In this document: positions 21,614 to 61,112 of the stretch, in pieces
Layout of the letters: each line of letters begins with the position of its first letter
How positions within the stretch are numbered: position 1 is the first letter of the stretch
NCBI GenBank assembly: GCA_041686075.1
Contig: JAWLEO010000013.1
Span: forward strand, 12,816-76,815
DNA length: 64,000 nt
Direction of reading: 5' to 3'
DNA from: Bacteroidales bacterium
Lineage (GTDB): Bacteria > Bacteroidota > Bacteroidia > Bacteroidales > VadinHA17
Position numbers and translations under genes: made by a program
The notes under the pieces: model-generated
Told to the model about the DNA's origin: nothing
The model's database searches: none
What the model saw: only the letters and a program-made list of their open reading frames with translations

Positions 21614-21830
21614 ATATCCCCTCTTGAAGGGGGTTAGGGGGATATATGCCTGGAATGATGAACAAGGATCCTCCTTTGAACCGAGTAGCACTAGCTTGCT
21701 ATCACAAACTCGCGCTGTCCCGAAGAAGCTAAAGCTTTTCGGCTCCCTGCCTTCCGGCAGGCAGGCTCGAATCGAAGATTCGGGACTCGGTTCCTAATTC
21801 CTAATTCCTAATTAATAATTAATACTTAAT
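21614..21830. repeat. intergenic mosaic repeat block R2
   Basis: Contains the hairpin module cccctcttgaagggggttaggggga (21618-21642) and the 21-nt module tcgaatcgaagattcgggact (21767-21787). A phase-locked heptamer run follows: TTCCTAA x3, TTAATAA, TTAATAC, TTAATCC (21791-21830). It runs into the rlmB stop codon. Confidence 0.9.
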
Positions 21831-22584
21831 CCTTCCCTGCTATCTCATACAGGAGTATTCCTGCAGCAACCGATACATTAAGTGAATCTATGTTGCCAAT
21901 CATAGGCACTGACAGAGCTATATCTGTTATTTCCAATATCTCAGGACTGACACCCCTGTCTTCTGAACCCATTACCAGAACGGCAGGACCGCTTAGATCT
22001 ACAGAGCGGGGTTTATCACCTCCCTTCTCTGAGGCACTGATAATTTTAAGGCCTGAGTTTTTGAGGAAAGAAAGTGTTTTTACCATGCTTTTAACCCTTG
22101 ACACGGGAATCCTGTGAAGGGCACCTGCTGATGTTTTTATGGCCTCGGCATTTATTCTTGCAGCTCCTTTTTCAGGAATAATTATACAATGCACTCCGAA
22201 ACATTCCGCACTGCGGGCAATGGCTCCGAAATTTCGTACATCAGAGATATTGTTCAATGCGAGCAGAAAGGGATCGCTCCCTGATTCATAAATTCCCGGT
22301 AAAAGGGAAAATAAATCATGATACTCTATTTCGGAAAGCCAGGCTATGACTCCCTGGTGATTTTTTTGTGTTATCCTGTTAAGCTTTTCGGCGGGCACCA
22401 CCTGGTAGGGAATTGAGTGCTTTATTAACTTCTCCATAAGTTGGTGGTAAAGCGATCCTTTCAAACCCTTTTTCATTATCAGCCTGTCGATGGTCTTTCC
22501 GGATTCTATGGCTTCAAGCACAGGTCTCAGTCCAAAGATATAGTCGCTTTTGCCCTTCATATCATATCCCTCTAGGATTATCAA
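21826..22584 (-). CDS. rlmB: TrmH/SpoU family 23S rRNA 2-prime-O-methyltransferase
   Basis: About 245 aa with an N-terminal substrate-binding region (GLRPVLEAI) and the SpoU knot motifs (NFGAIARSA, LVMGSEDRGVS, SLNVSVAAGILLYE). The true start is probably the ATG at 22560 (MKGKSDY). Confidence 0.8.
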   Translation of the reverse strand: MIILEGYDMKGKSDYIFGLRPVLEAIESGKTIDRLIMKKGLKGSLYHQLMEKLIKHSIPYQVVPAEKLNRITQKNHQGVIAWLSEIEYHDLFSLLPGIYESGSDPFLLALNNISDVRNFGAIARSAECFGVHCIIIPEKGAARINAEAIKTSAGALHRIPVSRVKSMVKTLSFLKNSGLKIISASEKGGDKPRSVDLSGPAVLVMGSEDRGVSPEILEITDIALSVPMIGNIDSLNVSVAAGILLYEIAGKD

Positions 22585-23884
22585 GCCTGAAAACTATACC
22601 TGAACGCCATGTGCGTATGGCCTCATCCCAGTAAGAGGTTACACTTTCACTTCTGATCAATACATAATCATTCGTGCTGAAAGGATTTTCCCTTTTACTG
22701 AAGGTGAAATACAGATATTCATCTTCTATTTTATATCTTATGCCCCAACCTCTCTTTACCTGTCGTTTCAGGTATCCCCATCTTTCTCCTTCCTTTGTTT
22801 TATAAACCCTGTCAGGTGGGCCATAAATAATGTAAATCATACCCCTGTCCGTTCGCCAGCCTTCTTTATGCGAGGTGAAGAAATAATTGGCATATAAAAC
22901 ACGGTTATAATATATCCTGATTAATTCACGTGAACGTTCGATATTGCCGGTTATATTAAGCCAGAAATCGTCTAATGCTACCTTAATCCTGTCACTGTTT
23001 TTTATTTCCTCTATTTCGTTTTCGTTGCTGAGATAGATTAAGGGATTAATCATGGTTTCCGGTTCTTTCATGCCCGGAAATTCCTCTCCGAAATTAAAAA
23101 TACTGTAGCCTTCCAGCCTGTTGGTATCAGTAGTGCAAAGATAGATTCCTTTGTCTGGAAACATCAGGGGGAGAGTATCGGAATATGCAAGTGAAACAAT
23201 GTTTTCGGCTTCGGTGTCAATACTCCTTGAAGGCATTAACATTGATGGGGGTATGGGGCTGGCACTGTCAGGCTCAAAAAACATGATAAAAAGTGAGTCA
23301 ATGGGGTACCTGTACAAAACATTAACAAATTCATTAGGCCTTAGCACGTTATTGAATAGTTCTATCTTATTGAAATGACCCCGCACTTTGAAGTTATTCC
23401 TGCTCAGGTCAGAGGTTTTATTAAAAGGCAGGTGTGCCTGTATCCTGGTGTCCCTGATGAGATCCCTGATCACCAATTCAGCCTCATATTTTGACCCCGC
23501 AGAGGCACGCATGGGTATTGTATAAGTGTATTGGCGGTTACCTTCCCGCTTCCTTATGTTAACATTGTAAAAGCCGGTATCGACAGCAATTCGGCCCTGT
23601 GACATGTTATATAACTTGTATATTATGATGAGCTCGGCTTTTGGAACACCCTCGGGATTGGCTTCAGAGAAGAAGAGGTCATTGGTGAAAAATTTAATGG
23701 TGAGCTCAGATAAATCTTCACTGACATTATATATCTGGTATCTTGGGTGAATAGGATTCCTTAACGGATTGTATAAATAAGAAAGGTCTCTTAAGTCTGT
23801 TTCTTCCTGTTTAACAGGAACGCACGAGGACAGTATAATAATTCCAGCCAGTATAAAAAATAAATTATTAATCTTTCCCATCAT
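22562..23884 (-). CDS. GWxTD domain-containing protein
   Basis: 440 aa with a signal peptide/lipobox (ILSSC) and the eponymous motif GWRTDRGMIYIIYGPPD. Confidence 0.8.
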   Translation of the reverse strand: MMGKINNLFFILAGIIILSSCVPVKQEETDLRDLSYLYNPLRNPIHPRYQIYNVSEDLSELTIKFFTNDLFFSEANPEGVPKAELIIIYKLYNMSQGRIAVDTGFYNVNIRKREGNRQYTYTIPMRASAGSKYEAELVIRDLIRDTRIQAHLPFNKTSDLSRNNFKVRGHFNKIELFNNVLRPNEFVNVLYRYPIDSLFIMFFEPDSASPIPPSMLMPSRSIDTEAENIVSLAYSDTLPLMFPDKGIYLCTTDTNRLEGYSIFNFGEEFPGMKEPETMINPLIYLSNENEIEEIKNSDRIKVALDDFWLNITGNIERSRELIRIYYNRVLYANYFFTSHKEGWRTDRGMIYIIYGPPDRVYKTKEGERWGYLKRQVKRGWGIRYKIEDEYLYFTFSKRENPFSTNDYVLIRSESVTSYWDEAIRTWRSGIVFRLDNPRGI

Positions 23885-23886
23885 TT

Positions 23887-24060
23887 CTATGTCTTTGTTA
23901 AAAATAGCAAACTTTCTTCGATTATTTCCTCCAGGAAAAGATAAATTCCACCGTTAAATTCCCTGATCTTTCTATTCTTGAACTCATATATTTTATCAGT
24001 AAGCTAGTTCAGAAAATACCTGTCATGTGATACAACAATTAGTGTGCCACCATATTGATG
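23887..24060 (-). pseudogene. 3-prime remnant of an ABC-F type ATPase gene
   Basis: The reverse-strand translation reads HQYGGTLIVVSHDRYFLN*LTDKIYEFKNRKIREFNGGIYLFLEE...KT*. This is an ABC-F C-terminal signature with an in-frame TAG (24004-24006) and no upstream Walker motifs. Confidence 0.6.
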
Positions 24061-24137
24061 ATCAACAAATATAATAAAGTATAATTTCACTCAGGTTGGC
24101 AGATGATTAGCATCATCCCATTTTCCCAACTAATTAA

Positions 24138-24145
24138 TATATTTG
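24138..24145 (+). promoter_or_regulatory. candidate -7 promoter box for the phosphatase/ATPase cassette
   Basis: tatatttg matches TAnnTTTG, 40 nt upstream of ATG 24185. Confidence 0.35.
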
Positions 24146-24184
24146 CAGTATATTTAGGAACTAAAGACAAAAGCTTGCTAATAA

Positions 24185-24991
24185 ATGGATAAGGATAGAA
24201 AAGACTTTGATTCTGTTCTTTTTGCCCAGGCTATGGATGAGCACCTGTCAAGCCTGAGGTATGCAAGCATGATACAGAGATCATTAATGCCCGATACTTC
24301 CTTCCTTTCAGGAATACTTAAAGATCATTTCATATTTTATCTTCCGAAAGATTATGTCAGTGGAGATTTTTATTACGCTAACCAGAATGCAGGTTATACA
24401 GTTATCGCCGCTGGCGATTGTACTGGCCACGGTGTGCCAGGGGCATTGTTATCTATCCTGGGGATAAGTTTTTTAAATGAAATATTGCAGGGAAGAGAAA
24501 TTCTCCGCGCCAACAGGATACTTAACAGGATGAGGGAAAAAGTTATGGGGGCTCTTGATCAGCGGGGGCAGGAGTACGAACAAAAAGATAGCATTGATAT
24601 AGCTCTTTGTGTTTATGAACCATTGAGGTCAGTCATTCAGTATGCAGGGGCTAACAGACCACTGGTAAGAGTTAGTGAGGGTGAACTTACAGAAATAAAA
24701 CCTGATAAAATGCCAATTGGTGTAGCACCCCTGGAGGAAGTATCATTTACCAATCACAGGATAGAAGTAAAGCAGGGAGATCGCTTTTATATGTTCTCAG
24801 ATGGATACCCCGACCAGTTCAGTGAAGAGACAAATAAAAAATTTAAAATAAAAAACTTCAGAGAATTAATAGCACATGCATCAGGATGGAGCATGGAAAA
24901 GCAAAAAAGGCATATTGAAAATATTTTTTACGACTGGAAGGGTAGTACTGTGCAGGTGGATGATGTACTTGTTATGGGGTTTGAAATTTAA
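24185..24991 (+). CDS. stand-alone PP2C/SpoIIE-family serine phosphatase domain protein
   Basis: 268 aa with ASMIQRSLMP, SGDFYY, GDCTGHGVPGALLS, FSDGYPDQF and VDDVLVMGF, so all metal-binding Asp motifs are present. No sensor or TM region. Confidence 0.85.
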   Translation: MDKDRKDFDSVLFAQAMDEHLSSLRYASMIQRSLMPDTSFLSGILKDHFIFYLPKDYVSGDFYYANQNAGYTVIAAGDCTGHGVPGALLSILGISFLNEILQGREILRANRILNRMREKVMGALDQRGQEYEQKDSIDIALCVYEPLRSVIQYAGANRPLVRVSEGELTEIKPDKMPIGVAPLEEVSFTNHRIEVKQGDRFYMFSDGYPDQFSEETNKKFKIKNFRELIAHASGWSMEKQKRHIENIFYDWKGSTVQVDDVLVMGFEI

Positions 24992-24996
24992 AAACT

Positions 24997-27285
24997 ATGA
25001 GATTAACAGCTTTCCGAATAGAAAATTTCAGGTCGATTGTAGATACGGGCATGCAAACAATCTCACCTGATAATATAACTTGCCTCATAGGACAAAATGA
25101 GTCGGGAAAGACATCCATACTTGAAGGACTTCAGGTATTTTCATCCGGGGTGATCTCTGAGGATGTCCTAAGAAGTGACCTTTCACTGCCACGCGTTACA
25201 TGTAGCTTTGAGATACCCCAAGACTATCTGGACAACAAGTTACACCCGGTCAATGATGAATTTGATAAGATAGTAAAATCATTGAATAATATAACTCTTG
25301 TGCGTTCCTGGAAGGCTGACCTCAAATCACAAATGGATATCGGCGGAGAACTACTGGAATATATTGAGGCTTTGAATGAAAGCAGAAAAAAAGAGTTAGA
25401 TGATGCCGGCAACAAGATTATGAATTTCTGTTCTGAACTGGACGATGCAAGGAAACGGAAGGAATCTCTCAACCGTGAACTTCATAACATACAGATGAAG
25501 ATTGATGAACATCCTGCAAGAAAGGGCGGACTCAAATTTTTCAGAAAGAAGAATGCAGTAGTAAAAGACGGTAATGAAAAGACTCTTGATGAACTCAATG
25601 TAGCTTATGAAAAAAATCTCACTGAAATAAGTAAAATCAATTCTTTTCTGGAGGATAAGGCTACCCTGATAAAAGTTGTTGAAGACTGGTTAGAAACAGT
25701 GGCTGAGCTTGATAATATAAACAAAAGACTGGATGAAATTTCTGTAAGGTTGGAGGAAAGACACCAGACCATGACATTGCTATCAGGGCCTTCAATAGCT
25801 GAACTGTCCCGTGGGGAGTGGGAAAGAGTGCTTACTGAATATCAATCTGCAGTTAACAGGAAGGAAGAAGTGGAAAAGGAACGTGACCTGAAAATTTTAT
25901 TGTGCGGTTTTATTTTTGAGGGAATTGATGAAGAAAGGGCGAGGCTTAAGATCCAAAAAATTGAAGATGAAAGAAGACTTGAGTATCATCCCAAAGAACT
26001 GGGCGAGTTACTGTCAGCTGATTGTCCCCATTTTGAGATGTTTGAAGATTTCGGGAGCTTACTTCCCAACCGCATTGATATGGAAGACCTGGTGTCTGAT
26101 AACCAGAATGTGGAAGGATATAAGGCAGCAAGGAATTTCTTGACCCTGGCCGACCTCGATTATACATTTTTTCAGCAGCCCTCATCCCGGATACTCAAAC
26201 AAAAAATTGAAAATCTCAATGCAAAGCTAACACTTGATTTCCAGGATTTCTGGCAGCAATATGTGGGAAAACACAACAAAATAAGGATCAATTTCGAACT
26301 TGACCATTACAGTACCAATCACGGTGATAAAGCAGGAAAGCCCTACCTGGAATTCTGGGTTAAGGATGAAGGAGAAAGATTGTATCCAAAGCAGCGAAGC
26401 CGTGGCGTGAGGTGGTTCCTTTCTTTCTACCTGGAATTGATGGCAGCTTCGCGAAGGGATAAAAAGAAGCTAATCCTACTGGTTGATGAGCCTGGAGTGA
26501 GCCTGCATGCGAGGGCACAGGAAGATGTGCTGAAAGTGTTTGAAGATATAAAGGACGACATGCAGGTAATCTATACAACACATTCACCACACCTCGTTGA
26601 TGTAAATAAACTTCACAGGGTACTCGCCGTGCAAAGAGACGACGTGATAAGTCACAAATCAGCAACGGTAATTCTCGATGCCGCACGTTTAAGTGACGCC
26701 TCTCCCGATACTCTTTCACCCTTGCAGAGCATAATGGGCAATCCCGTTGGCAACCAGGAATTCTCGGTTGATAAATACAATATAATTGTTAATAATGTGG
26801 GCACGTTCTACATGATGAATGCTGCTATGAAGTTGACAGGTTATAAGGGCAGAATACACTTCATTCCTTCAACAGATGCCTCTTCCATACCCCTGATGTG
26901 TAATATACTTATGGGTTGGGGAATGAAATTTGCCGTCTTACTTTTCAATAACGAAAATGAGATAGAGATTGCAAGACAGCTGGAGAAACTGGTCTTTACT
27001 AATCAACCCGGTGAAAATGAGAACATAATAATAATGCCCGAACAATTTAAAAATGCCGAAGACCTGCTGTCGACCCTCGATTTTAAAAATCTGATACTAA
27101 AGACCAGGCAGGGCATTACAGTGTCTAATTCTGAGCATGTTAATATTAATGACCTCCCACGTAATTTTATCCTGAGCAAGTTCCTTGGAGATGTGAAGAA
27201 AGGTAAGATCACAAGAACAGATCTTGATGAGGAATCAAAGGAGAATCTCGTCCTCCTGGTGAATATACTCCAGAGATTTAAATAA
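24997..27285 (+). CDS. SMC/OLD-like ABC-type ATPase with a coiled-coil insertion and an uncharacterised C-terminal domain
   Basis: 762 aa. It has Walker A GQNESGKTS (residues 32-40), a long heptad-rich insertion, signature-like QRSRGVRWFLSF, Walker B LILLVDEPGVSLH and H-loop YTTHSPH. It starts 5 nt after the phosphatase stop. Confidence 0.8.
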   Translation: MRLTAFRIENFRSIVDTGMQTISPDNITCLIGQNESGKTSILEGLQVFSSGVISEDVLRSDLSLPRVTCSFEIPQDYLDNKLHPVNDEFDKIVKSLNNITLVRSWKADLKSQMDIGGELLEYIEALNESRKKELDDAGNKIMNFCSELDDARKRKESLNRELHNIQMKIDEHPARKGGLKFFRKKNAVVKDGNEKTLDELNVAYEKNLTEISKINSFLEDKATLIKVVEDWLETVAELDNINKRLDEISVRLEERHQTMTLLSGPSIAELSRGEWERVLTEYQSAVNRKEEVEKERDLKILLCGFIFEGIDEERARLKIQKIEDERRLEYHPKELGELLSADCPHFEMFEDFGSLLPNRIDMEDLVSDNQNVEGYKAARNFLTLADLDYTFFQQPSSRILKQKIENLNAKLTLDFQDFWQQYVGKHNKIRINFELDHYSTNHGDKAGKPYLEFWVKDEGERLYPKQRSRGVRWFLSFYLELMAASRRDKKKLILLVDEPGVSLHARAQEDVLKVFEDIKDDMQVIYTTHSPHLVDVNKLHRVLAVQRDDVISHKSATVILDAARLSDASPDTLSPLQSIMGNPVGNQEFSVDKYNIIVNNVGTFYMMNAAMKLTGYKGRIHFIPSTDASSIPLMCNILMGWGMKFAVLLFNNENEIEIARQLEKLVFTNQPGENENIIIMPEQFKNAEDLLSTLDFKNLILKTRQGITVSNSEHVNINDLPRNFILSKFLGDVKKGKITRTDLDEESKENLVLLVNILQRFK

Positions 27286-27298
27286 GAATTTTGAATTA

Positions 27299-27432
27299 GG
27301 CTAAGGCTAAGGCTAAGGCTTAGACCGCCGGAGACCGGTTAGGCAGGGATCATCGAATCGAAGATTCGGGACTAGCTTCATAATTCATATTTCATAATTC
27401 ATAATTCATAATTAATACTTAATACTTAATAC
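27299..27432. repeat. intergenic mosaic repeat block R3
   Basis: (GGCTAA)x3 plus GGCTTA at 27299-27322, and tcgaatcgaagattcgggact at 27353-27373 (identical to 21767-21787). Eight phase-locked heptamers follow (TTCATAA/TTCATAT x5, TTAATAC x3, 27377-27432), ending exactly at the stop codon of the convergent gene. Confidence 0.92.
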
Positions 27433-28959
27433 TTATTCTGTCCTGTAAATAGGATAAATATCCTTTGGTATATTTTCATATTCAATGGTGGTGAGATCAG
27501 CTGGCCCGAGACCGGGTGCATCAACTTCGAAAATGGCACCGGCAAGTCCGTTCTCATAAAAACCACGCCTGAAATGAACACGGGATTTAAGAGATATAAT
27601 ATCAATATCATCGATGTTCATGCCGAGATCATCAATTATACCCGCACTGGTTACCTGGTGAAGCTCGGGTGTGATAATTACCGTATTGTTATCTCCAAAT
27701 CTGACCAGGGCTACCTTTTCAAACCTGCCATACCTGTCAAAATATTCAAGGGTACCGTTTATTTCAACCGGTTCACCGGCATATTCATCTGCATAACCTC
27801 CTACCATGATATTAACGCTGTCACCGGCTTTTTTGCCTGACTCCTTCATATGCTCAATAAGCTTTTTGTCTGCTATGGTGGCTATGCAGAAATTCTCTGC
27901 CCCCTGCTTTACCAGTTCGGCCAGTATATGGGTGGAGTTGCCGGTTCGGTCACTGTGATCGGCTAAAACCACAGGTGTTTTACCTGCTTTTGCTGCTTCT
28001 ATGCCCAGGCGAACACCTTCGCTTGTCTTTGGCAGTTTCTTGCCTGCAAATTCATGTCGCACCCTCCATATATAATCGTTCATATCATTTGCTATCCGTT
28101 CAGCCAGTTCCTTGTCATCATTCGTTATAACCATTATTGTTGCCCCAACGTCAGGGACATCGGCATAAGCAAAGCCAAATGCGACAGATACATAAACACC
28201 TGGCATACGATCTTCCCATCGCCTGGCCCTTTCCATTATTTCCATTGCGGGAGAGACACCTGTGCCCTGGTATACGCTAGGTGTAATGACGCCCGGTTTC
28301 CTGGTAACCATCACTGGTTTATAATCACCCCTCAGAGTATTTATCATAAGCCTGCCTGCTCTTTCTCCCTGGCTATAGGTGTCGTAATGAGGGTATCTTT
28401 TAATTATTATAACCCCTGATGCTGCATCGGAGAGCTCATGATCTTCGTTTGCGTGCAGGTCAAGGCTTACTATCACAGGTATATCGCCGGCAACCTCTCG
28501 TATCCTTCTCACTATTTCCGCTTCAGGCTTGGGTATTCCACTTACTGCCATGGCACCATGCAGCGAAAGATATATACCATCATAGGGCCCCTTGGTTCTG
28601 ATATCTTCCTGCATGGCACCGGTGTATTTATCAAATGCTTCCCTTGTTATCCAGCTGCCTGAGGAACCTCCGACTGCATCCCTTGGTGATGTTATTCCTT
28701 CAAGTTTTACTCCACCATACTCCTTTATACGGTCAACAAAGCCCCTTATATATGAATCAGCACTCAGTACCTCATCACCTTCAAGAGGAGGTCCGTAATA
28801 CTCAAATTCATCAATACCGGTGGGCCTCGGACAAAAAGTGCATGTCTCATGCGAAAAAGTAGCTATGCCGATTTTGTAATCATCACTTTTTGATTGTTTT
28901 GTGCTGTCACACGATAGCAGAAAAGAAAGTGTAATGAAAATAACAACTAATTTTTTCAT
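27433..28959 (-). CDS. M81 family metallopeptidase (MlrC-like)
   Basis: 508 aa with a signal peptide/lipobox (LLSC) and the MlrC-type N- and C-terminal domain pattern (FSHETCTF, HGAM, SLDLHAN). Confidence 0.8.
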   Translation of the reverse strand: MKKLVVIFITLSFLLSCDSTKQSKSDDYKIGIATFSHETCTFCPRPTGIDEFEYYGPPLEGDEVLSADSYIRGFVDRIKEYGGVKLEGITSPRDAVGGSSGSWITREAFDKYTGAMQEDIRTKGPYDGIYLSLHGAMAVSGIPKPEAEIVRRIREVAGDIPVIVSLDLHANEDHELSDAASGVIIIKRYPHYDTYSQGERAGRLMINTLRGDYKPVMVTRKPGVITPSVYQGTGVSPAMEIMERARRWEDRMPGVYVSVAFGFAYADVPDVGATIMVITNDDKELAERIANDMNDYIWRVRHEFAGKKLPKTSEGVRLGIEAAKAGKTPVVLADHSDRTGNSTHILAELVKQGAENFCIATIADKKLIEHMKESGKKAGDSVNIMVGGYADEYAGEPVEINGTLEYFDRYGRFEKVALVRFGDNNTVIITPELHQVTSAGIIDDLGMNIDDIDIISLKSRVHFRRGFYENGLAGAIFEVDAPGLGPADLTTIEYENIPKDIYPIYRTE

Positions 28960-30161: not shown

Positions 30162-30638
30162 ATGAAAAGACTTATAGGAATAACATTATTGTTTTTCACA
30201 ATGCTTGCCTATAGTTGCTATGAAATTAATACTGCCGATGATAAAATGACTCTTAATAATCCAATATTGAAATACCTGGCACTCGGCGATTCCTATACCA
30301 TCGGTGAGAGTGTCGATCCTTCCATGAGATGGCCTGTCCAACTTGTTGATAAATTGAGAGAAGACAGTGTCAATATGGCTGATGCCGAAATAATTGCGCA
30401 AACAGGATGGACAACAGATGAACTGATGAACGGAATAAAAAATGCCCAAACAGGTAATGATTATGACCTGGTATCTCAGCTCATTGGTGTAAATAATCAG
30501 TACAGGGAACGTGATATCACAAGACAGGCTTCCAGCGACCCGTCACTGGTAGCCAGTGACGACTTGCATCCCTCCGGCAAAATGTATGCACTGTGGGTTG
30601 ACAGGGTATATTCCCATGTCTACCAATTGTTAAAATAG
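30162..30638 (+). CDS. SGNH/GDSL hydrolase, apparently internally shortened
   Basis: 158 aa. Block I is LALGDSYTIGES, block III-like is LIGVNNQ, and block V is DDLHPSGKMY, but only about 25 residues separate blocks III and V. Confidence 0.65.
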   Translation: MKRLIGITLLFFTMLAYSCYEINTADDKMTLNNPILKYLALGDSYTIGESVDPSMRWPVQLVDKLREDSVNMADAEIIAQTGWTTDELMNGIKNAQTGNDYDLVSQLIGVNNQYRERDITRQASSDPSLVASDDLHPSGKMYALWVDRVYSHVYQLLK

Positions 30639-30644
30639 AACAAC

Positions 30645-31313
30645 ATGAATAAGAGGTTGCTGGCAATAGGAGATGTACATGGTTGCTTCAGGCAACTGTA
30701 TAGCCTCCTAACCGAGATTATCAATCTTAACATGGAGGATAAGCTTATAATGTTGGGTGATTATATTGACAGGGGACCTGAAAGTAAACAGGTGCTCGAC
30801 CTGATAATGGAACTTATATCTGAAGGATACGATATCTTGCCCCTGATGGGCAACCATGAGGACATGATGAGGAATGCACCAAGGAGTAATATGGATAACT
30901 ATAACTGGATGCTGAACGGGGGAGGTGAAACCCTTGACAGCTTTGGTGTGTCATCAGCTGGTAATATCGATAAAAAATATCTGGATTTCGTGTCAGCATT
31001 GTCTTTATATCATATCATTGATAATTATATTTTTGTTCACGGAGGATTCAATGACGATATTGACGATCCATTTTCTGACGAATACAGCATGCTTTGGGAA
31101 CGAAGGTTTGAATATAATTCACCGGTATTTTACGGGAAGACAATAATTCATGGACACCGGCCACATTCTCTTGCAGAACTCAGGGAACAGATGAAACATA
31201 AACCTTCAATTATCAATATCGATACCGGCTGTGTATATGGTAAGGATTACGGACTTGGTGACCTTACAGCTATAGATCTCTATTCAATGAAGTTATACTC
31301 TGTAAACTGCTAA
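30645..31313 (+). CDS. metallophosphoesterase (PPP-type Ser/Thr phosphatase/ApaH-like)
   Basis: 222 aa with GDVHGC, GDYIDRGP, GNHE and HGH motifs. Confidence 0.85.
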   Translation: MNKRLLAIGDVHGCFRQLYSLLTEIINLNMEDKLIMLGDYIDRGPESKQVLDLIMELISEGYDILPLMGNHEDMMRNAPRSNMDNYNWMLNGGGETLDSFGVSSAGNIDKKYLDFVSALSLYHIIDNYIFVHGGFNDDIDDPFSDEYSMLWERRFEYNSPVFYGKTIIHGHRPHSLAELREQMKHKPSIINIDTGCVYGKDYGLGDLTAIDLYSMKLYSVNC

Positions 31314-31383
31314 GCCCTCACCTCTATTATCTCACTATAACTTAAACAGTAAATATCTAGGGTGTTAGGCTTGTTCTGAATTT

Positions 31384-31590
31384 CGAATATCGAATAACGA
31401 ATGACGAATGTCGAAGTAGTTTAGGACAAGACAAGTGGCTGCATGATTTCAGATTTAATTCTCATTGTTGCAGAGGTTTTATTGCTTAGATTGGTTCGCA
31501 TATCGCATATCGCATATCGCCTCTCATTTTCCCCTCTCCATTCCTTGCTACCACCTACCAGTTAATAAATCATAATTCATCATTAATACT
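31384..31590. repeat. intergenic mosaic repeat block R4
   Basis: Heptamers CGAATNN x5 (31384-31418) and TCGCATA x3 plus variants (31496-31523). Next comes a module ending in attccttgctaccacctaccagttaataaatcataatt (31540-31577), then TTAATAC directly before the stop of the convergent gene. Confidence 0.92.
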
Positions 31591-33039: not shown

Positions 33040-34449
33040 ATGGAGGATAAAAAAATGAAATTCAGAAAACAAAAGTTGATCAGGATAGTGATCCCATTAG
33101 TGATAATAATGTTAATAATGGGTTCGTGTAAAAGTAACCAGGCAGAAAAGGAAGCACAAAAATTGCTGGAAAAACAGAGAGCTACTCTTGAAGAGGGCGA
33201 AGAACTGATTGAAGAAGCCTACCTTGAAATACAGGAGTTAAGAGATTCCCTCGATGCTGCTCAGGAAAATCTTGAAGCCAGGCGAGAGCAGGTTGAAGAA
33301 GATATTGAAGCATTGGAATCTGATCGTGAAGAGTATGCAGAAACCCTCAGCGAAGAGAAGGAAGAGGAGCTTGCTCAACAGAAGGCTGATTTGCAGTCAA
33401 GGCTCAAAGAAATAGAAGATAGTATTTCCTTTGTACAGGCTGAACGAGATTCTGTTCAGAAACAAATGGATACTTTAGATATAAAAGAACAGCAGCTGGA
33501 AGAGCAGAAGAAAGTTTCCACGGAGAAACTTATTACAGGTATCGACGACATTGATAACCGCCTGGATGAGATTGAAAAACAGAGACTCGTAAAACTTAAT
33601 GAGACTGAGATCAATGAACAGAAAATAGAGCTGGCCAGGAAAAAAATTGAACTTCTGGAAGATGAGAAAAACATTTATCAGAGAGAAAAGAACGAGATAT
33701 TGAAAAAGAATGGTGATGAGGCTGAACTGGAGAAGTATGACCTTAAAATAAGTAAGATTAACAGCTATCTTAATGAAGAGCAGAATAAGATAGAAAATGC
33801 TGAAAGCAATATAAAATCCCTGCAGTCATGGATAAATGATGCCGATGCTCTGAAAGAAAGGCTCAGGAACATGATGTCCTCAGAGTACGATAGGGATGAA
33901 ACTATCGATGAATTCACAAAGCAAGAAATAAATAGGCTGGAAAGGGAACGTCAAGCCCTGAATAAGGAACTGGAGGACCTTAATAATTTAAAAACCAGCC
34001 TGTCCGAAAAGAGAGCTTCCCTGAATGAAAGGCTGGTATCCCTTGAAGAGGAGGCTGAACTGGTTAAAAGCAGGGAGTTGTCCGAAATACTTGATGAAAG
34101 AGCCGGTATTGAAGAACAGGAGGTCCAGCTGGCAGAACGTGAAAAAAAAATGGCTAAGGAAAAGACAGCCCCCGAGACTCTAGAAGAAGTCACGGAGTTG
34201 GATCCGGGATCAGATGAGCTTAAGTCGATTGAGGAATCTATTGAACTTAAGAGGAAGCAAATCGATATACTCCGTTCAGAAATTGCAGAAGATGAAGCCC
34301 AGCTGGCAAAAGAGATGGCTGATATTGAAGCACAACGGTCGAAAAATGTCAGGAATGTAACCTGGACTGTAATAATACTTGTAATAGTAGGCATTGTAAT
34401 AATTGGTATTCTCTACGCCCTTGGCAGGCGTAGCAGGAAGCAAAGCTAA
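33040..34449 (+). CDS. long acidic coiled-coil protein with an N-terminal lipobox and a C-terminal TM anchor
   Basis: 469 aa. It has a signal peptide ending in LIMGSC, about 400 residues of E/K/L-rich heptads, then VTWTVIILVIVGIVIIGILYALG followed by RRSRKQS. Confidence 0.7.
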   Translation: MEDKKMKFRKQKLIRIVIPLVIIMLIMGSCKSNQAEKEAQKLLEKQRATLEEGEELIEEAYLEIQELRDSLDAAQENLEARREQVEEDIEALESDREEYAETLSEEKEEELAQQKADLQSRLKEIEDSISFVQAERDSVQKQMDTLDIKEQQLEEQKKVSTEKLITGIDDIDNRLDEIEKQRLVKLNETEINEQKIELARKKIELLEDEKNIYQREKNEILKKNGDEAELEKYDLKISKINSYLNEEQNKIENAESNIKSLQSWINDADALKERLRNMMSSEYDRDETIDEFTKQEINRLERERQALNKELEDLNNLKTSLSEKRASLNERLVSLEEEAELVKSRELSEILDERAGIEEQEVQLAEREKKMAKEKTAPETLEEVTELDPGSDELKSIEESIELKRKQIDILRSEIAEDEAQLAKEMADIEAQRSKNVRNVTWTVIILVIVGIVIIGILYALGRRSRKQS

Positions 34450-34519
34450 AGACGGATCCGACCCTTCAGAACAAGGGATTCGTAGAGAAAAATAATAATA
34501 AACAAACAAAATAAATATC

Positions 34520-35164
34520 ATGACAAAAAAAGCTAAAGCGAAACAAAAAGAAATAAGTGGAAAAGTGAAAAAAGAAGCGAAAAAGGTTAAGAAAACCACT
34601 GAGAAAGAGGCTGAAAAGGCTAAGAAAACAGCTGAGAAAAAGGCTAAGGAAACGGCTGAGAAAGCACAAAAAAAAGCCGAAGAAGTTAAAGAAGAATTTG
34701 AAAAATCATCCGATGACATCCAGGAGAATCTCAGAAAAGCAGGTGAGTCGATATCCGAATCAAGCTTCTGGGAGGAGACCGGTGAAAACATATCCGAAGG
34801 AGCTAAAATAGTGGGAGATGAAGCCCGGACCATCGCAGAGAAAATCTCTGCATATTCCGAAGTTCTCTTTGGCAAAATAAAGGACAGGTCATCAGAGGCT
34901 TTTAAATCCGGACTTGACCTGACCCGCGAGGGAGCTAACAGGGCACAGGCTGCTGCAGATGAGTTAAGAGATAATATAGAAGTCGGCAGGCTTAACAGGC
35001 AAAAAAAAGAGGTGGCCACCCAGCTTGGTATGAAATTTTACCTGGAAGTGAAAAATAATGATAATAAAGTTCCTGATAACATCCTCAGGAAAAGGGTTTT
35101 TATGTCACTTCTAAAAGAATTGGAAAATATTGATAAAAAAATATTGGAGTTGAAAGATGAATAA
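34520..35164 (+). CDS. Lys/Glu-rich hypothetical protein
   Basis: 214 aa with no signal peptide. The N-terminal region has reiterated AEKxAKKT units. Its stop overlaps the next start by 8 nt. Confidence 0.55.
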   Translation: MTKKAKAKQKEISGKVKKEAKKVKKTTEKEAEKAKKTAEKKAKETAEKAQKKAEEVKEEFEKSSDDIQENLRKAGESISESSFWEETGENISEGAKIVGDEARTIAEKISAYSEVLFGKIKDRSSEAFKSGLDLTREGANRAQAAADELRDNIEVGRLNRQKKEVATQLGMKFYLEVKNNDNKVPDNILRKRVFMSLLKELENIDKKILELKDE

Positions 35165-35633
35165 AATAAAAATTAAACTTAAACATATTATTAATGCAAC
35201 GATAATTGCCTGGATCATTATCTGGCTATATTATCTTATTTTTAACTGGGACGTTTTTAGCATTAACCTGAAAACTGATCTTGGCTTTGCAGTCATAGGT
35301 GGTTTTCCCTTTGTATTTTTCTTTATAGTTGGACTTTTATTTCTTATCTTGATCAAGTACTTTGACAGTGCAATCGCTGCCAGGAAACTGTCAGACGAAA
35401 AAGACCTGAAGAATAAGATAGCATTACTTGAAAAGGATATTGAAGTACTGAAGCTTAAGGAAACACTTTTCAAGATGCAATCGGAAGAGATGAGCAGGAG
35501 TAATGCAAACCTTAGTGCTTTGCATCGGAAGCTGGATGAAATAACTTCACAGATGGAGAGTGAAAAGGGAAAATCGGGGGAAACTGATTCTTCAAACGAG
35601 GAGGAGGATAAGAAAAGCAAAAATAACAAATGA
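35157..35633 (+). CDS. LapA-domain-like membrane protein with a coiled-coil tail
   Basis: 158 aa with two N-terminal TM helices, then a coiled coil and an acidic tail. An ATGA overlap joins it to the MlaD gene. Confidence 0.5.
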   Translation: MNKIKIKLKHIINATIIAWIIIWLYYLIFNWDVFSINLKTDLGFAVIGGFPFVFFFIVGLLFLILIKYFDSAIAARKLSDEKDLKNKIALLEKDIEVLKLKETLFKMQSEEMSRSNANLSALHRKLDEITSQMESEKGKSGETDSSNEEEDKKSKNNK

Positions 35634-36634
35634 AAATCCGTACCCAGAAAGTAAGGCTCGGAGTGTTTATTTTTTTAAGCGGTGCATTACTCGTTGTACT
35701 TGTATTGTATTTCGCGGTAAACAAGCTATTTGAAAAATCAGATATTTATTATGTAGCCTATCATGATGTATCAGTTAGCGGGCTTGAAGTGGGAAGCCCG
35801 GTAAACTACTTGGGAATAAAGATTGGTACAATATCGAATATATTCATTGATCCACAGGATATTAATTCTATAATCGTAGAACTGTCATTGCAGCCTGGAA
35901 CGCCAATTAAGAAAGATGCGTATGCCGATATTGTTTCGCTTGGCATAACCGGGCTTAGGACAATCGAAATAAGGGGAGGAAGCAACGAAGCCGATTTCCT
36001 CAAACGAGGCGAATTCATTAAGGCAGGCAGGTCTGCATCCCAGGAAATAACGGGCAAGGCCAGTATAATTGCGGAAAAAGCAGAAAATGTGATTAATAAC
36101 CTCCAGCTTTTTACAGAGCCGGAGAATATGGATAAATTTTCCGATGCTGCAGAAAATATTAATACACTTGCAGCACAATTGAATACAACAACACAGGTAA
36201 TAGATACCCTGGTAAAAGAAAACAGGGCCGGGGTAAGGGAAGCTGTATTGACTGCTAACCTGGTGGCTAATCGACTGGATACATCCGCTATAAGCCTGGG
36301 CAAGGCAATAACCAGCTTAAATAACATTATCCAGAGTGATACCTTGCAACAGATTGTTGGTAATGCTTACATTCTGTCACAGCATCTGGAGGAAACAAAT
36401 CTTAAATTATTTATAAGTAATCTGGCTGAGATCAGTAAACAAACCAGGGAATTGCTTTATAAGATCGACCAGGAACTGGATGTAAATAGCCAGGAATTAA
36501 GTGAAAGCGTGAGATTGCTAAGAGTGACACTGTCTAACCTGGAAGAAACTTCAAATAGAATAAATTCAGATCCCTCTATACTGTTGCGAGGCTACGGCGA
36601 TAAAAATATTCCCGATAAGCGATTGAAAAAATAA
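35630..36634 (+). CDS. MlaD/MCE family substrate-binding protein
   Basis: 334 aa with an N-terminal TM helix, an MCE domain (GLEVGSPVNYLGIKIGTI) and a long helical C-terminal extension. Confidence 0.85.
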   Translation: MKIRTQKVRLGVFIFLSGALLVVLVLYFAVNKLFEKSDIYYVAYHDVSVSGLEVGSPVNYLGIKIGTISNIFIDPQDINSIIVELSLQPGTPIKKDAYADIVSLGITGLRTIEIRGGSNEADFLKRGEFIKAGRSASQEITGKASIIAEKAENVINNLQLFTEPENMDKFSDAAENINTLAAQLNTTTQVIDTLVKENRAGVREAVLTANLVANRLDTSAISLGKAITSLNNIIQSDTLQQIVGNAYILSQHLEETNLKLFISNLAEISKQTRELLYKIDQELDVNSQELSESVRLLRVTLSNLEETSNRINSDPSILLRGYGDKNIPDKRLKK

Positions 36635-36680
36635 ATGACCTGTTGAAAAAGACTCTGACAGGCTTATTGAAAAATTTATT

Positions 36681-37307
36681 ATGAGACTATTTATACTAAC
36701 TGTGATAAGCTTCATCCTCATGCTAACATCATGCGTGGCAGAAAAAAACATAATGAGGAAATACTATACCCTTGAAATACCTTCGGATGCATATGCCACA
36801 GCATCCGATACATTATGGACAATTCCCGGCAAATGTGAAATTGGGCGTGTAAATATAAATCCTGTTTGTGAGTCAAACCAAATAGTTAATCGTAATAAAT
36901 CTCATGAAATAACATATTATAGGTACCATCGTTGGGCGGTGCGACCTGATGATGCTATAAGAGAATTGTTGTCGGAATATTTGCAGAACAGGAAGCTTTT
37001 CGACAACGTATCCACCAGGTTTGCTATGTCAGTGCCTGACTACAGGTTGAAAACAATGGTGAAGGACCTGGAGATAATTGAAAATGATAAATCATTTTCA
37101 GCTCATGTAAACATCGACTATATCTTAACTAAAAATATTAACGACAGTGTCCTCGTCAGTCACCGGGCCGACAGGATTGAACCTCTTAAACACAAGGATA
37201 TGAATCTTTTTGCCCAGGCAGTAAGCAGTATACTGATAGAAGAACTCGAAGTATTCGCAAAAATGTTAAGAGAGAAGGAAGAAATATTCTATAGTGAGGA
37301 GCAGTAG
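36681..37307 (+). CDS. ABC-transport auxiliary lipoprotein (PqiC/DUF330-like)
   Basis: 208 aa with a lipobox (LMLTSC) and a YYTL start of the mature domain. It sits between the MlaD and MlaE genes. Confidence 0.55.
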   Translation: MRLFILTVISFILMLTSCVAEKNIMRKYYTLEIPSDAYATASDTLWTIPGKCEIGRVNINPVCESNQIVNRNKSHEITYYRYHRWAVRPDDAIRELLSEYLQNRKLFDNVSTRFAMSVPDYRLKTMVKDLEIIENDKSFSAHVNIDYILTKNINDSVLVSHRADRIEPLKHKDMNLFAQAVSSILIEELEVFAKMLREKEEIFYSEEQ

Positions 37308-37338
37308 TAATTATTTATCCTGAAAAATATCACCCGAA

Positions 37339-38451
37339 GTGGCCGGAAGAAAAAATAATCAAACTTTTTATAAACTCGAAAATGACATACTTGAATTAAA
37401 GGGAAGGTTTACAATCAAGGAACTTAATGAATCATTATATGAGGTGGAGAAAGCCCTGGGTGAATTCAATAATCCTAACCTTACTATTGACCTGGATCAA
37501 CTTACTTTTATTGATAGTGCCGGTGTAACTGCAATATATTATTTGCATGACAATATGACCGGAAAAGGGATAAAAGTGGAAATAAGAGGTGGGGTAGAGG
37601 ATATTAAAAGAAAGCTTGAATTGTTTGCTCAGGATGAAAAAGCGGCAGAGGGTACACCATTCAGGGTAGGATTTTTTGAGAAATTGGGAAGCGGTGCAGC
37701 ATATGTTTATAAAGAAATTATAGCTACCTGGTTTCAGCTGGCAGCTGACATTACTTACTGGTCGGTAATCGATCTCTTTCACAGGCATACACGAAGGAAG
37801 GGTGAATTTGCAAACCAGGCGGTTCTGATAGGTGTTAATGCTGTGATGATTGTCGGTGCTATGTCATTTGTTATCGGGCTTGTGCTGGCCTTGCAATCAG
37901 CAGCTCAATTGCGCTCATTCGGGGCAAATGTATATATAGTCGACCTTACCGTTATAGCAATGATGAGCGAGATGGGCCCCCTCATAACAGCAATTATGGT
38001 AGCCGGGAGAAGCGGATCATCAATAGCTGCTGAAATTGCAACAATGAAGGTAACCAACGAAATCGATGCATTAAGAACAATGGGGCTTAATCCGGTACGC
38101 TTTATTATAGTACCTAAAATGCACGGTGCACTTATTACACTGCCTTTTCTCACCATTATAGCCGATGTCCTGGGTATAGCAGGAGGCTTGGTAATCGCAG
38201 TTAATGCGCTGGGGATATCACCAATGGTGTTCATACACAGGATGGAGGAGGCATTCCATATGAAAGATGTACTTTTTGGTATAATCAAAAGCTTTGTTTT
38301 TGCTTACCTCATCGTTATCACAGGCAGCTACTTTGGTTTTAAAGTAAAACAGGGAGCTGATGTGGTGGGTAAAGTGACTACACTGGCCGTGGTGGTTGCC
38401 ATTTCACTCGTAATAATTGCAGACAGTATAATGGGCCTTATTTTTTACTAG
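37339..38451 (+). CDS. STAS-domain-fused MlaE-type ABC permease
   Basis: GTG start. The N-terminal ~100 aa are STAS-like (LTFIDSAGVTAIYYL), followed by an MlaE permease core (MSEMGPLITAIMVAGRSGSSIAAEIATMKVTNEIDAL). Confidence 0.85.
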   Translation: MAGRKNNQTFYKLENDILELKGRFTIKELNESLYEVEKALGEFNNPNLTIDLDQLTFIDSAGVTAIYYLHDNMTGKGIKVEIRGGVEDIKRKLELFAQDEKAAEGTPFRVGFFEKLGSGAAYVYKEIIATWFQLAADITYWSVIDLFHRHTRRKGEFANQAVLIGVNAVMIVGAMSFVIGLVLALQSAAQLRSFGANVYIVDLTVIAMMSEMGPLITAIMVAGRSGSSIAAEIATMKVTNEIDALRTMGLNPVRFIIVPKMHGALITLPFLTIIADVLGIAGGLVIAVNALGISPMVFIHRMEEAFHMKDVLFGIIKSFVFAYLIVITGSYFGFKVKQGADVVGKVTTLAVVVAISLVIIADSIMGLIFY

Positions 38452-38470
38452 AATTATAGATTGTTTTTGT

Positions 38471-39217
38471 ATGAATACCGAGAAGGTGATAAGAGTCAAG
38501 GGACTGACAGCAATCATTGATGATAAAGTGATTCTGTCAGATATCAGTTTTCATGCCAATGCCGGGGATGTAAGCGTTATACTGGGAAGCAGCGGATCAG
38601 GCAAGACGGTTTTACTTAAACACCTCCTTGGTTTATATCCAAGTGCCCGGGAAGCCGTTTCGGTAATGGGACTGAATCCGTCATACCTGGAAGAAGAGGA
38701 AGAGAAAGAATTTTATACCAAACTAGGGGTTTTCTATCAAAATGGCGCCCTCTTAAATTCACTAACGGTGGGTGAGAATGTTGCGCTCCCTCTGCAACAA
38801 CATACTGATCTCCCCCCTGATATGATTAAAAGACTCGTAAAGCTTAAGTTAAAACTGGTAAACCTCCAGGGCTCATATAATATGTTTCCATCCAGCCTTA
38901 GCGGGGGCATGCTTAAAAGGGCAGCTCTTGCCAGGGCAATCATAATGGACCCTCCAATACTTTTCTGTGATGAACCGGGTTCAGGACTGGATCCTGTATC
39001 CCTGGCTTCTCTTGACAACCTAATACTCGACCTTCAAAAACTCCTGGGTATTACGGTTATTATGATAACGCATGAAGTATCAAGTATATTCAGGGTAGCC
39101 GACAGGATAATATTTATTGATGAGGGGAAAGTGATTTTTGAGGGTACACTTAAAGAGGCACTTAAATCGGAAAATAAAGCCTTGAAAGAATTTTTCCGCA
39201 AAGGAAGAGGGGAATAG
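38471..39217 (+). CDS. MlaF-type ABC transporter ATP-binding protein
   Basis: 248 aa with Walker A GSSGSGKT, signature LSGGMLKR and Walker B LFCDEPGSGLD. Confidence 0.9.
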   Translation: MNTEKVIRVKGLTAIIDDKVILSDISFHANAGDVSVILGSSGSGKTVLLKHLLGLYPSAREAVSVMGLNPSYLEEEEEKEFYTKLGVFYQNGALLNSLTVGENVALPLQQHTDLPPDMIKRLVKLKLKLVNLQGSYNMFPSSLSGGMLKRAALARAIIMDPPILFCDEPGSGLDPVSLASLDNLILDLQKLLGITVIMITHEVSSIFRVADRIIFIDEGKVIFEGTLKEALKSENKALKEFFRKGRGE

Positions 39218-44859: not shown

Positions 44860-44867
44860 TAGAGACA

Positions 44868-45025
44868 GGCTAAGGCTAAGGCTAAGGCTAAGGCTCCGTC
44901 TTCGCTGGCGCGGATCTGCTCCCCCTTTGAAGGGGGTTGGGGGAATGTTATCTTCGCTGGCGCGGATCTGCTATTGTACGCCATAGCCTGAAAGGCGAAG
45001 GTGGAAGACTCGTGCCACGCTGCGG
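44868..45025. repeat. intergenic mosaic repeat block R6
   Basis: (GGCTAA)x4 starts 9 nt after the stop (44868-44891). The 22-nt direct repeat tcttcgctggcgcggatctgct (44899-44920 and 44951-44972) flanks the hairpin module ccccctttgaagggggttggggga (44921-44944). cgtgccacgctgcgg is at 45011-45025. Confidence 0.9.
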
Positions 45026-49293: not shown

Positions 49294-49384
49294 GATCTCA
49301 GGATTTATTAAAACTCGGCACTAAGACAATGAAAATTTAAGAAATTTTGAGATATAATCAAATACCGGCGCTAGAAAATCACTT

Positions 49385-49419
49385 CTTAAATCTGAAATCT
49401 TAAATCTGAAATCTTAAAT
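49385..49419. repeat. heptamer tandem array CTTAAAT/CTGAAAT x5
   Basis: cttaaatctgaaatcttaaatctgaaatcttaaat. This is the same heptamer family (a rotation of AATCTTA) as 61074-61112. Confidence 0.92.
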
Positions 49420-49615
49420 CAAACCCTTAAATATATCTTCCCCATATCTTATTTTTGATATTTAGCTGACAATATTTATCTTAGTGAGGCTGTTTAACCA
49501 AAAAATCGCTGCTATATGGAAACACCCGAAGAAATCAAAAAAGATTCCTCGATGCACGTAGCTTCATAAGACCGGGCCTGGATGAGTGAGTAAGGCCAAA
49601 AGCCGCATCGAAGGG

Positions 49616-54513: not shown

Positions 54514-54915
54514 AGGGAATGTAAGATTACTCACCCTGCTAACGCAGGGTTCGTGATCTTTATTGGGGTTAATTCAAAAGACAAAAAAGTCTCCTTTCAG
54601 TCGGGTTTTATTGTCAGTTAGTCGCTTATGAAAATAAATTTTCAACGCTCCTTCCTTCCAATAAAAAAACCTGACATTTCTGTCAGGGCTTTTTTGGTCT
54701 TTTGTCGGGGTAGTAAGATTACTCGCTCTTCGCTATGCTCATCGCTCGTGATCATTTTGGAGGTTAATTCAAAAGACAAAAAAGTCTCCTTTCAGTCGGG
54801 TTTTATTGTCAGTTAGTCGCTTATGAAAATAAATTTTCAACGCTCCTTCCTTCCAATAAAAAAACCTGACATTTCTGTCAGGGCTTTTTTGGTCTTTTGT
54901 CGGGGTAGTAAGATT
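54514..54915. repeat. about 2.1 tandem units of 195 bp, each ending in a copy of the tRNA-Pro 3-prime terminus
   Basis: 54569-54720 is identical in register to 54764-54915 (offset 195). Each unit carries the terminator hairpin and the 16-nt tcggggtagtaagatt. A third, degenerate junction (gggaatgtaagattactc) is at 54515-54532. Confidence 0.9.
54858..54890 (-). terminator. bidirectional intrinsic terminator downstream of tRNA-Pro
   Basis: 7-bp stem cctgaca/tgtcagg with a 4-nt loop, flanked by A7 and T6. A duplicate lies at 54663-54695. Confidence 0.75.
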
Positions 54916-61074: not shown

Positions 61075-61112
61075 ATCTTAAATCTTAAATCTTCAATCTT
61101 CAATCTTAAATC
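61074..61112. repeat. heptamer tandem array AATCTTA/AATCTTC x5.5
   Basis: It fills the whole gap between two convergent genes and overlaps both stop codons. Confidence 0.92.

Follow-up and report, generated by a model that had tools for sequence, protein, structure and literature searches.

Apart from the archaeal Cran1, the proteins of the OLD family are treated as anti-phage defence nucleases, and they are divided into classes according to their partner: a single gene in class 1, a UvrD-like helicase in class 2 (Gabija), a retron reverse transcriptase with a non-coding RNA in class 3, and the split AriA/AriB arrangement in class 4. In PARIS, the system formed by AriA and AriB, the ATPase holds its effector and then releases it. 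The PP2C Ser/Thr phosphatases of the SpoIIE/RsbU type are normally switched by a partner or an attached domain, for example in RsbT-RsbU and RsbQ-RsbP, and to our knowledge no ABC ATPase has been described as a regulator of these enzymes. Cran1 is an OLD-family ATPase-nickase of the Sulfolobales which is vertically inherited and has a role in the cell cycle rather than in defence (PMC12796447). In this study, we have analysed a stretch of 64,000 nucleotides (nt) from a Bacteroidales bacterium (contig JAWLEO010000013.1; hereafter the window), in which the gene of a stand-alone SpoIIE/PP2C phosphatase (open reading frame 1, ORF1) is followed by that of an ABC ATPase with a degenerate Toprim domain (ORF2). 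The reading that we favour, and hold tentatively, is a swap of effector: ORF2 may well be an OLD-derived sensor ATPase that has lost its nuclease and whose output is now the PP2C, in a cellular role.

ORF2 (24997..27285, plus strand; 762 amino acids, aa) begins with the N-lobe of an ABC ATPase (residues 1-116, 24997..25344), whose Walker A motif GQNESGKT lies at residues 32-39 (nt 25090-25113). A helical, coiled-coil insert of ~220 residues follows (117-340, 25345..26016), and the C-lobe (341-535, 26017..26601) contributes a signature-like QRSRGVRWFLSF (466-477), the Walker B motif LLVDE with D497/E498 at nt 26485-26490, and the H-loop TTHSP, of which H529 is the His. Behind a linker (about residues 536-590, 26602..26766), which contains the conserved HRVLAVQRDD and ASPDTLSPLQSIMGN and is predicted with low confidence, stands a Toprim-like domain in which the catalytic residues are replaced (residues 591-762 and the stop codon, 26767..27285). 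Pfam places AAA_15 on residues 1-534 (9.6e-29), with additional matches of SMC_N and AAA_23, and finds no family beyond about residue 557 and no match to a Toprim model; a profile search of the PDB likewise matched ATPase segments only. Walker A, the DE of Walker B and the His of the H-loop are intact in all 162 distinct homologues that we scored, a set aligned in strict column register with manual checks and to which a metagenome scan contributed 80 loci. The first-pass annotation of this DNA, made from the letters alone, had recognised these motifs and read ORF2 as OLD-like; its ATPase layout stands and the OLD likeness is supported by the matches of the C-terminal domain described below, but it had overlooked the degenerate Toprim in that domain, which makes an OLD-type nuclease unlikely.

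The evidence for this Toprim comes from structure prediction and from profile comparison. In an AlphaFold2 (AF2) model of residues 572-762 alone, with a predicted local distance difference test score (pLDDT) of 86.3, the domain adopts a beta-alpha-beta-alpha-beta-alpha-beta core, and the top PDB match of this model in Foldseek is the T. scotoductus OLD protein 6p74, a weak one (E 4.6e-3, template modelling score 0.34, prob 0.98) after which generic flavodoxin-like folds follow. An hhalign comparison of the family profile with phage P2 Old (prob 94.2%, E 1.1e-7) runs from the signature through Walker B and the H-loop to Toprim strands 1-3, and it sets VEG of P2 Old against V598-N599-N600 and DCD against F650-N651-N652. 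The acidic triad is thus replaced by Asn599 for Glu (nt 26791-26793) and by Phe650/Asn652 for DxD (nt 26944-26952). A search of 1.84 billion representative proteins returned 424 ORF2 relatives below 1e-30, comprising long forms (756-804 aa, with identities as low as 29%) and many short forms of 570-650 aa, from which the coiled-coil insert is absent. In the short and in several long forms, strands 1 and 3 of the C-terminal domain end in NN[VI][IL]LEE and [VI][VIL]DDD; these contain the canonical Glu and DxD of a Toprim, which relatives at 25-40% identity possess. In the corresponding columns, the window clade shows I[IV]VN[ND] and LLF-x-N. In P2 Old, mutation of the acidic Toprim residues abolishes function (PMC10568477). 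On sequence and model together, we identify the C-terminal domain of ORF2 as a degenerate Toprim and ORF2 as a derivative of the OLD family, and with an Asn/Phe/Asn triad two-metal catalysis is unlikely. The domain nevertheless remains under constraint, its mean pairwise identity (0.61) exceeding that of the coiled coil (0.42).

The coiled coil is the fastest-evolving part of ORF2, and the C-lobe of the ATPase reaches a mean identity of 0.85, with 108 of its 195 columns invariant among 80 clade members. The full-length AF2 model (pLDDT 71.7) shows an ABC head split by the long helices of residues 117-340, of which those at 117-170, 191-259, 274-307 and 312-340 have a pLDDT of ~85-92; this coiled coil probably mediates dimerisation. 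The linker, which spans residues 531-587 in this model, is modelled poorly (pLDDT 29-45 at 536-590) yet its mean pairwise identity is 0.77, and the Toprim-like domain behind it ends in a helical tail. Between the ATPase and the Toprim-like domain lies a Ser/Thr-rich loop, ASPDTLSPLQS (567-578), which is also of low confidence and conserved. Foldseek with the full-length model is led by the heads of cohesin, condensin and Rad50, its longest alignments being with GajA and T. scotoductus OLD, and it says little on the C-terminus. PADLOC matches ORF2 with its AriA model (1e-30), Old (2e-19) and PtuA/GajA (1e-12 to 1e-15), the AriA match being restricted to the generic AAA_15 region.

The second line of evidence is the linkage of the two genes, which the first-pass annotation had expected to find outside this genome if the pair was meaningful. 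A PP2C gene stands directly upstream in 145 of the 162 distinct homologues and, among the genome loci, immediately upstream in 82 of 83, the exception ending at a contig edge. The order, PP2C and then ATPase, is fixed, the gap is usually 5-25 nt, and the linkage persists to ~37% ORF2 identity over at least five flanking contexts. Relatives at 38-44% identity (P0244, P0391 and P0246) have a SpoIIE gene of 276-280 aa directly upstream in neighbourhoods unlike the window, namely a Zn peptidase, RlmN and a XerC-like recombinase in one setting and PKD and AraC-type genes in a second. No SpoIIE gene accompanies the short form P0265, the long form P0263, whose Toprim is intact, or P0343, a relative at 29% identity.

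Linkage and the state of the Toprim go together. Among the 145 PP2C-linked homologues the E/D/D triad is intact in 8 and degenerate in 137, whereas among the 11 unlinked homologues with enough upstream DNA it is intact in 8 and degenerate in 3 (Fisher exact p = 2.5e-7, a value not corrected for phylogeny); in one of these three, L123, a PP2C gene lies ~1 kb upstream. The linked proteins have lost the acidic residues in different ways, with NFN in 76, KFN in 24 and about two dozen other triads, such as EGN, EGH, EMN and ESS. In the clade with an intact Toprim the PP2C is facultative, since it is present in L114 and L115 and missing from L112 and L117, which are closely related to them. The simplest reading of these alignments would be that an OLD protein with a functional nuclease and a long coiled coil gained a PP2C, and that its metal sites then drifted without restraint and the phosphatase became indispensable.

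ORF1 (24185..24991, plus strand; 268 aa) precedes ORF2 in the same direction with a gap of 5 nt, as the first-pass annotation had it (24991/24997), and the claim that it consists solely of a PP2C/SpoIIE domain with intact motifs is also confirmed. SpoIIE is its only Pfam domain (4e-19, residues 69-264), the C-terminal domain of SiaA matches it in NCBIfam at 4.7e-42, below the cutoff, and among solved structures it comes nearest to 6k4e, the PP2C domain of SiaA from Pseudomonas (2.5e-26). The motifs SGDFY, GDCTGHG, DG..DQ and DD are kept in at least 98% of the 147 partner phosphatases aligned from related loci. The great majority of these measure 249-292 aa, a length which leaves no room for an extra domain, and the few shorter ones are mostly truncated by contig ends. 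Taken with the invariant motifs of the ATPase, this conservation demonstrates purifying selection on both active sites. No PADLOC model is matched by ORF1, and neither a STAS substrate nor a serine kinase of the GHKL, RsbW or SiaB type adjoins the pair in the window or in related loci.

Two observations around ORF1 may be added. The nearest STAS domain of the window is the N-terminal one of an MlaE permease 10 kb from the pair (37339-38451, plus strand), which belongs to an Mla-type lipid transport operon (35630-39217, plus strand) that is unlinked to the pair in other clades. One metagenome contig (L178, 140-3626) encodes a fusion of a canonical receiver (REC) domain with an ORF1-like PP2C. 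The fusion protein has 396 aa and shares 76% identity with ORF1; the gene that immediately follows encodes an ORF2 homologue of 762 aa, and the MlrC neighbour is the same as in the window.

The history of the chromosomal site indicates vertical inheritance. More than 120 full-length homologues (756-785 aa, 53-97% identity) all come from metagenome-assembled genomes (MAGs) of Bacteroidales/Bacteroidota, and when one genome was scanned for each species, an ORF2 relative was present in 251 genomes, of which the loci of the best-matching 80 are again all from Bacteroidales/Bacteroidota MAGs. Three long contigs, with ORF2 homologues at 74%, 61% and 55% identity, have a SpoIIE gene of 268-271 aa directly upstream and share the neighbours of the window: a SpoU-type methylase, a GWxTD protein, an acyl-ACP thioesterase and an ABC-F protein. 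The identities of ORF2, GWxTD and SpoU are 91/89/84, 74/74/76, 61/59/61 and 55/51/54 in successive relatives, and because ORF2 tracks the other two almost one to one, we read the pair as vertically co-inherited with them.

These data do not agree with the proposal of the first-pass annotation that an isolated cassette, AT-richer than its flanks and a candidate for defence, had arrived by insertion or replacement. Relatives down to 55% identity hold the pair at the same site with the same neighbours. The GC content of the cassette is 40.6% against 41.7% for the window, at the 33rd percentile of windows of equal length, and its tetranucleotide distance is ordinary (18% tail); as windowed GC, GC at third codon positions and tetranucleotide distance are all unremarkable, a foreign origin was ruled out. 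Native composition and conserved synteny, which the annotation itself had named as arguments against its proposal, are therefore both present, while its expectation that the two genes co-occur is strongly borne out. The decayed ABC-F gene on which the insertion had been based is real but narrower than was described. It comprises 44 codons (23929..24060, minus strand) of a gene which, in relatives, is located upstream of the pair in divergent orientation and is intact in 71 of 83 related loci; tblastn with the ABC-F proteins of L001 and L002 aligns the remnant with residues 488-531 (64-66% identity, E 1e-12). The acyl-ACP thioesterase gene is absent from the interval between the GWxTD gene and the pair (22562-24185), and a relative with 91% identity, L004, has kept ABC-F and likewise lacks the thioesterase. 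Insertion of the pair beside a decayed ABC-F was ruled out because relatives hold the pair together with intact ABC-F and thioesterase genes at this site; from this comparison, the window genome has lost most of ABC-F and the whole thioesterase with the pair already in place.

Nothing around the pair recalls a mobile defence island, since it has neither atypical composition, patchy spread, nor defence or mobility neighbours. The window neighbours are an M81/MlrC peptidase, a beta-lactamase-fold protein, a GDSL lipase remnant and a Metallophos protein, and no defence family is enriched among the immediate neighbours and 67 sampled flanking genes, which are housekeeping genes. The PP2C-linked form of ORF2 does not occur in 2.9 million viral contigs, where only six distant short relatives were found (28-36% identity, none with a PP2C), and no plasmid match covers at least 80% of ORF2, distant short forms being present. 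Judged by these comparisons, the pair is vertically inherited, cellular rather than mobile, in a large group of uncultured Bacteroidales.

Based on these results, the preferred reading can be set out as a mechanism. ORF2 would descend from the ATPase-Toprim nucleases of the OLD family and would have retained its ABC ATPase as a sensor or motor, with the Toprim relic serving as a binding or scaffold surface. The cue sensed by the ATPase would most plausibly be a nucleic-acid or nucleoprotein state, in keeping with other ABC ATPases of the OLD/Rad50 type, and an ATP-dependent conformational change would switch the phosphatase on or off, or release it, so that ORF1, controlled in trans, would dephosphorylate Ser/Thr-phosphorylated targets encoded elsewhere. 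We infer the physical contact of the two proteins, the cue, the targets and the direction from ATPase to phosphatase. Control of the PP2C by the ATPase is suggested because ORF1 lacks a regulatory domain of its own and belongs to a subfamily that is typically switched by partners. The swap itself is supported because both active sites are kept and because the triad has degenerated in the linked rather than in the unlinked homologues. A phosphatase that merely tuned the nuclease would fit less well, because loss of the nuclease would then leave the pair pointless, yet both active sites are under strict selection. Signalling is suggested by the REC-PP2C fusion, known from one locus, and by the Reg_prop/Y_Y_Y-SpoIIE gene found upstream in the KFN clade; a cellular role is suggested by the core-genome behaviour of the pair, for which Cran1 is a precedent. 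A more far-reaching version, possible but on the doubtful side, would see here a domesticated immune OLD protein that recruited a PP2C, was then deprived of its nuclease and now forms the first known Ser/Thr phosphatase switch controlled by an ABC ATPase. Such a switch would link a nucleic-acid or nucleoprotein cue to protein dephosphorylation as a core cellular function in a large uncultured lineage of Bacteroidales, and would represent a fifth OLD context class with extant intact-Toprim intermediates.

Several points weigh against our proposal. Shared ancestry inflates the statistics on motif states, NFN and KFN being two large clades; the loss of nuclease activity is predicted from the triad residues, and contact between ORF1 and ORF2 is putative. 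Beside the pair, neither the window nor the related loci show a conserved substrate, kinase or STAS partner. Ancestors that combined an intact Toprim with a PP2C resemble a conflict system, and defence could still be the role of the pair. Finally, all carriers of the pair are uncultured.

We have therefore weighed the effector swap against other explanations. It is unlikely, though by no means negligible, that the pair still acts against phages or plasmids in the manner of abortive infection, ORF2 sensing infection like AriA, GajA or PtuA and the PP2C being the toxic or regulatory effector, in which case its fixation in this lineage would be incidental. The characterised bacterial OLD/AAA_15 members are defence proteins (PMC10568477), in line with the PADLOC matches of ORF2, intact-Toprim relatives exist both with and without a PP2C, and distant short forms are found on viral contigs and plasmids; Class 1 OLD genes, too, typically lie outside defence islands (PMC10568477). 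Against this stand the vertical inheritance with synteny over 55-91% identity and native composition, neighbours without defence enrichment, the absence of PP2C-linked forms from viral contigs and plasmids and the lack of a PADLOC match for ORF1, and 108 invariant columns among the 195 of the C-lobe would be unusual for proteins in an arms race. A known defence system was ruled out, since the PADLOC matches are confined to the generic ATPase region of ORF2 and ORF1 has none.

Control could also run in the opposite direction, with ORF2 as the substrate of a kinase encoded elsewhere, the PP2C resetting or activating it and the output being an ATPase on DNA or RNA. The 5-nt coupling with its fixed gene order, the strictly conserved ATPase site and the conserved Ser/Thr-rich loop at 567-578 would all suit such an arrangement, but we consider it distinctly improbable: the loop is equally conserved in relatives without a PP2C, which rules out a substrate site specific to the PP2C, and the neighbourhood has no conserved kinase, ORF2 being followed by a PAS-HATPase_c gene at only 8 of 83 loci. 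With the ATPase-Toprim protein as the output, it would also be difficult to see why the nuclease residues were lost repeatedly, and specifically in lineages with a linked PP2C. We give slightly less credence again to the possibility that ORF2 is a repair or chromosome ATPase of the RecF/RecN/SMC/Rad50 type with the PP2C as a cell-cycle accessory, a bacterial counterpart of Cran1. Its core-genome behaviour, the Cran1 precedent, the cohesin, condensin and Rad50 heads leading the full-length Foldseek search and weak matches to SMC_N and RecF speak for it. All of these profile scores, however, are under curated cutoffs (38.0 vs 40 bits for Pfam SMC_N; 33 vs 172 for RecF and 22.6 vs 729 for SMC, both far under, in NCBIfam), related loci and sampled flanks show no linked hinge, kleisin, Mre11-type or RecO/RecR partner, the closest sequence relatives are of OLD type and not SMC/RecN, and Cran1 keeps an active nickase, unlike ORF2. 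That the two genes are mere neighbours with unrelated functions is so improbable that it can be set aside, adjacency in 145 distinct homologues effectively refuting it.

Beyond the two genes, none of the neighbours holds as a conserved third gene across the clades of related loci. Metallophos, PAS-HATPase_c, TRAM methyltransferase, Reg_prop-SpoIIE and Peptidase_C26 genes are specific to clades, and genes linked to rRNA and translation recur (SpoU/RlmB-like, TRAM methyltransferase, ABC-F, RlmN), a functional clue too weak to interpret. In the clade with Lys at the Glu position (KFN; L126, L130-L137, L140, L148, L161, L174 and related loci), the pair has an additional gene on either side: the gene of a ~716-aa Reg_prop/Y_Y_Y-SpoIIE sensor phosphatase stops 45-51 nt short of the small PP2C gene, and a Peptidase_C26/GATase gene begins 35-58 nt past ORF2, which suggests a four-gene operon. 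A Metallophos (calcineurin-like) gene follows the ORF2 homologue directly in L001 and L013, on the same strand after ~60 nt (10352-11011 in L001); in the window, MlrC-like, beta-lactamase-fold and GDSL genes intervene between ORF2 and the Metallophos gene (30645-31313, plus strand), which may be the ancestral third gene of the near clade (10 of 83 loci). The intervening GDSL lipase ORF (30162-30638, plus strand) encodes 158 aa against 236 aa in L002, and with tblastn the L002 residues 5-119 and 195-233 were matched in the window, ~75 internal codons being seemingly deleted. In a MAG from Salar de Ascotan (L021, 6001-8287), the ORF2 homologue matches from about residue 235 on and is called at 504 aa, the result of either a disrupted gene or an indel in a long-read assembly.

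Upstream of the pair, the box reported by the first-pass annotation is present: TATATTTG (24138..24145, plus strand) is a Bacteroidetes-type -7 box (TAnnTTTG) that ends 39 nt 5' of the ATG of ORF1. The motif alone shows no enrichment in the window (67 matches vs 61 expected), but the spacing of exactly 39 nt recurs at 12 related loci, and in 23 of 142 loci a box lies 15-70 nt upstream, against a background of 1.1% per 63-nt coding window. The box may act as a promoter.

The repeat block noted downstream is also real, with AGGCTA x3.8 (27298-27320), TTCATAA x5.9 (27377-27417) and TACTTAA as short tandem repeats between ORF2 and the convergent M81/MlrC peptidase gene (27298..27435). Tandem blocks with units of 6-7 nt occur in intergenic DNA at 21791-21830, 27298-27435, 31378-31520, 44867-44895, 49384-49420 and 61072-61112, AGGCTA units being found at two separate sites (27298 and 44867). 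Because similar blocks lie in other intergenic regions of the window, they look like a genome-wide intergenic habit rather than a feature of the pair. Elsewhere in the window, a 195-bp unit is repeated 1.9 times with 98% identity (54551-54915) in a region of low GC (33-40% at 53-57 kb), and at 33040-35164 a 469-aa ORF without Pfam match precedes a stretch of very strong AT skew (0.33-0.37), with in-frame-like repeats of 12, 24 and 33 nt beyond the ORF (34579-34663).

In conclusion, the pair can be compared with several described systems, and ORF2 groups with the OLD proteins by its fold and its descent. With the Class 1 OLD nucleases (P2 Old, T. scotoductus OLD) ORF2 has in common the N-terminal ABC ATPase with a helical insert and the C-terminal Toprim fold, but it lacks the catalytic Glu and both Asp (N599, F650, N652), its insert of ~220 residues is far longer than that of the short forms, and it has an obligatory PP2C partner and vertical core-genome inheritance. 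The partners that define the other OLD classes, a helicase, a reverse transcriptase or AriB, are missing from the flanks of the pair in the window and in related loci. ORF1 falls in the PP2C subfamily of RsbU (with RsbT), RsbP (with RsbQ) and SiaA of SiaABCD, SiaA 6k4e being its nearest structure; unlike in RsbU/V/W and SiaABCD, no STAS substrate or RsbW/SiaB-type kinase is linked to it, and its putative regulator is an ABC ATPase. The claim that such a pairing is without described precedent has held, as we found no paper describing SpoIIE/PP2C with an OLD/AAA_15 ATPase, although a mention in the 2020 Nucleic Acids Research classification of ABC ATPases is possible.

If our proposal is correct, the pair would add to the OLD family a class defined by its PP2C partner, and the SpoIIE/RsbU-type phosphatases would gain a new kind of regulator. 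The natural series from an intact nuclease, through an intact nuclease with a phosphatase, to a dead nuclease with an obligatory phosphatase would offer a testable example of effector replacement in which the sensor of a conflict system is taken into the core genome, and relatives with intact and dead Toprim domains represent ready-made biochemical controls. Like ORF2, Cran1 belongs to an OLD clade that is found in a single order-level lineage, is inherited vertically and has apparently been co-opted for a role in the cell; it differs in being archaeal, in standing alone and in having kept its nickase, whereas ORF2 is bacterial, linked to a PP2C and without its Toprim residues. In PARIS (AriA with AriB), Gabija (GajA with GajB) and Septu or retron systems (PtuA with PtuB), an AAA_15-type ATPase likewise has a dedicated partner next door; here, a Ser/Thr phosphatase takes the place of a nuclease or helicase, the locus has no homologue of AriB/DUF4435, GajB or PtuB, and the setting is neither mobile nor a defence island. 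By analogy, ORF2 would act most like the partner-holding ATPases AriA, PtuA and GajA, with a partner of different chemistry.

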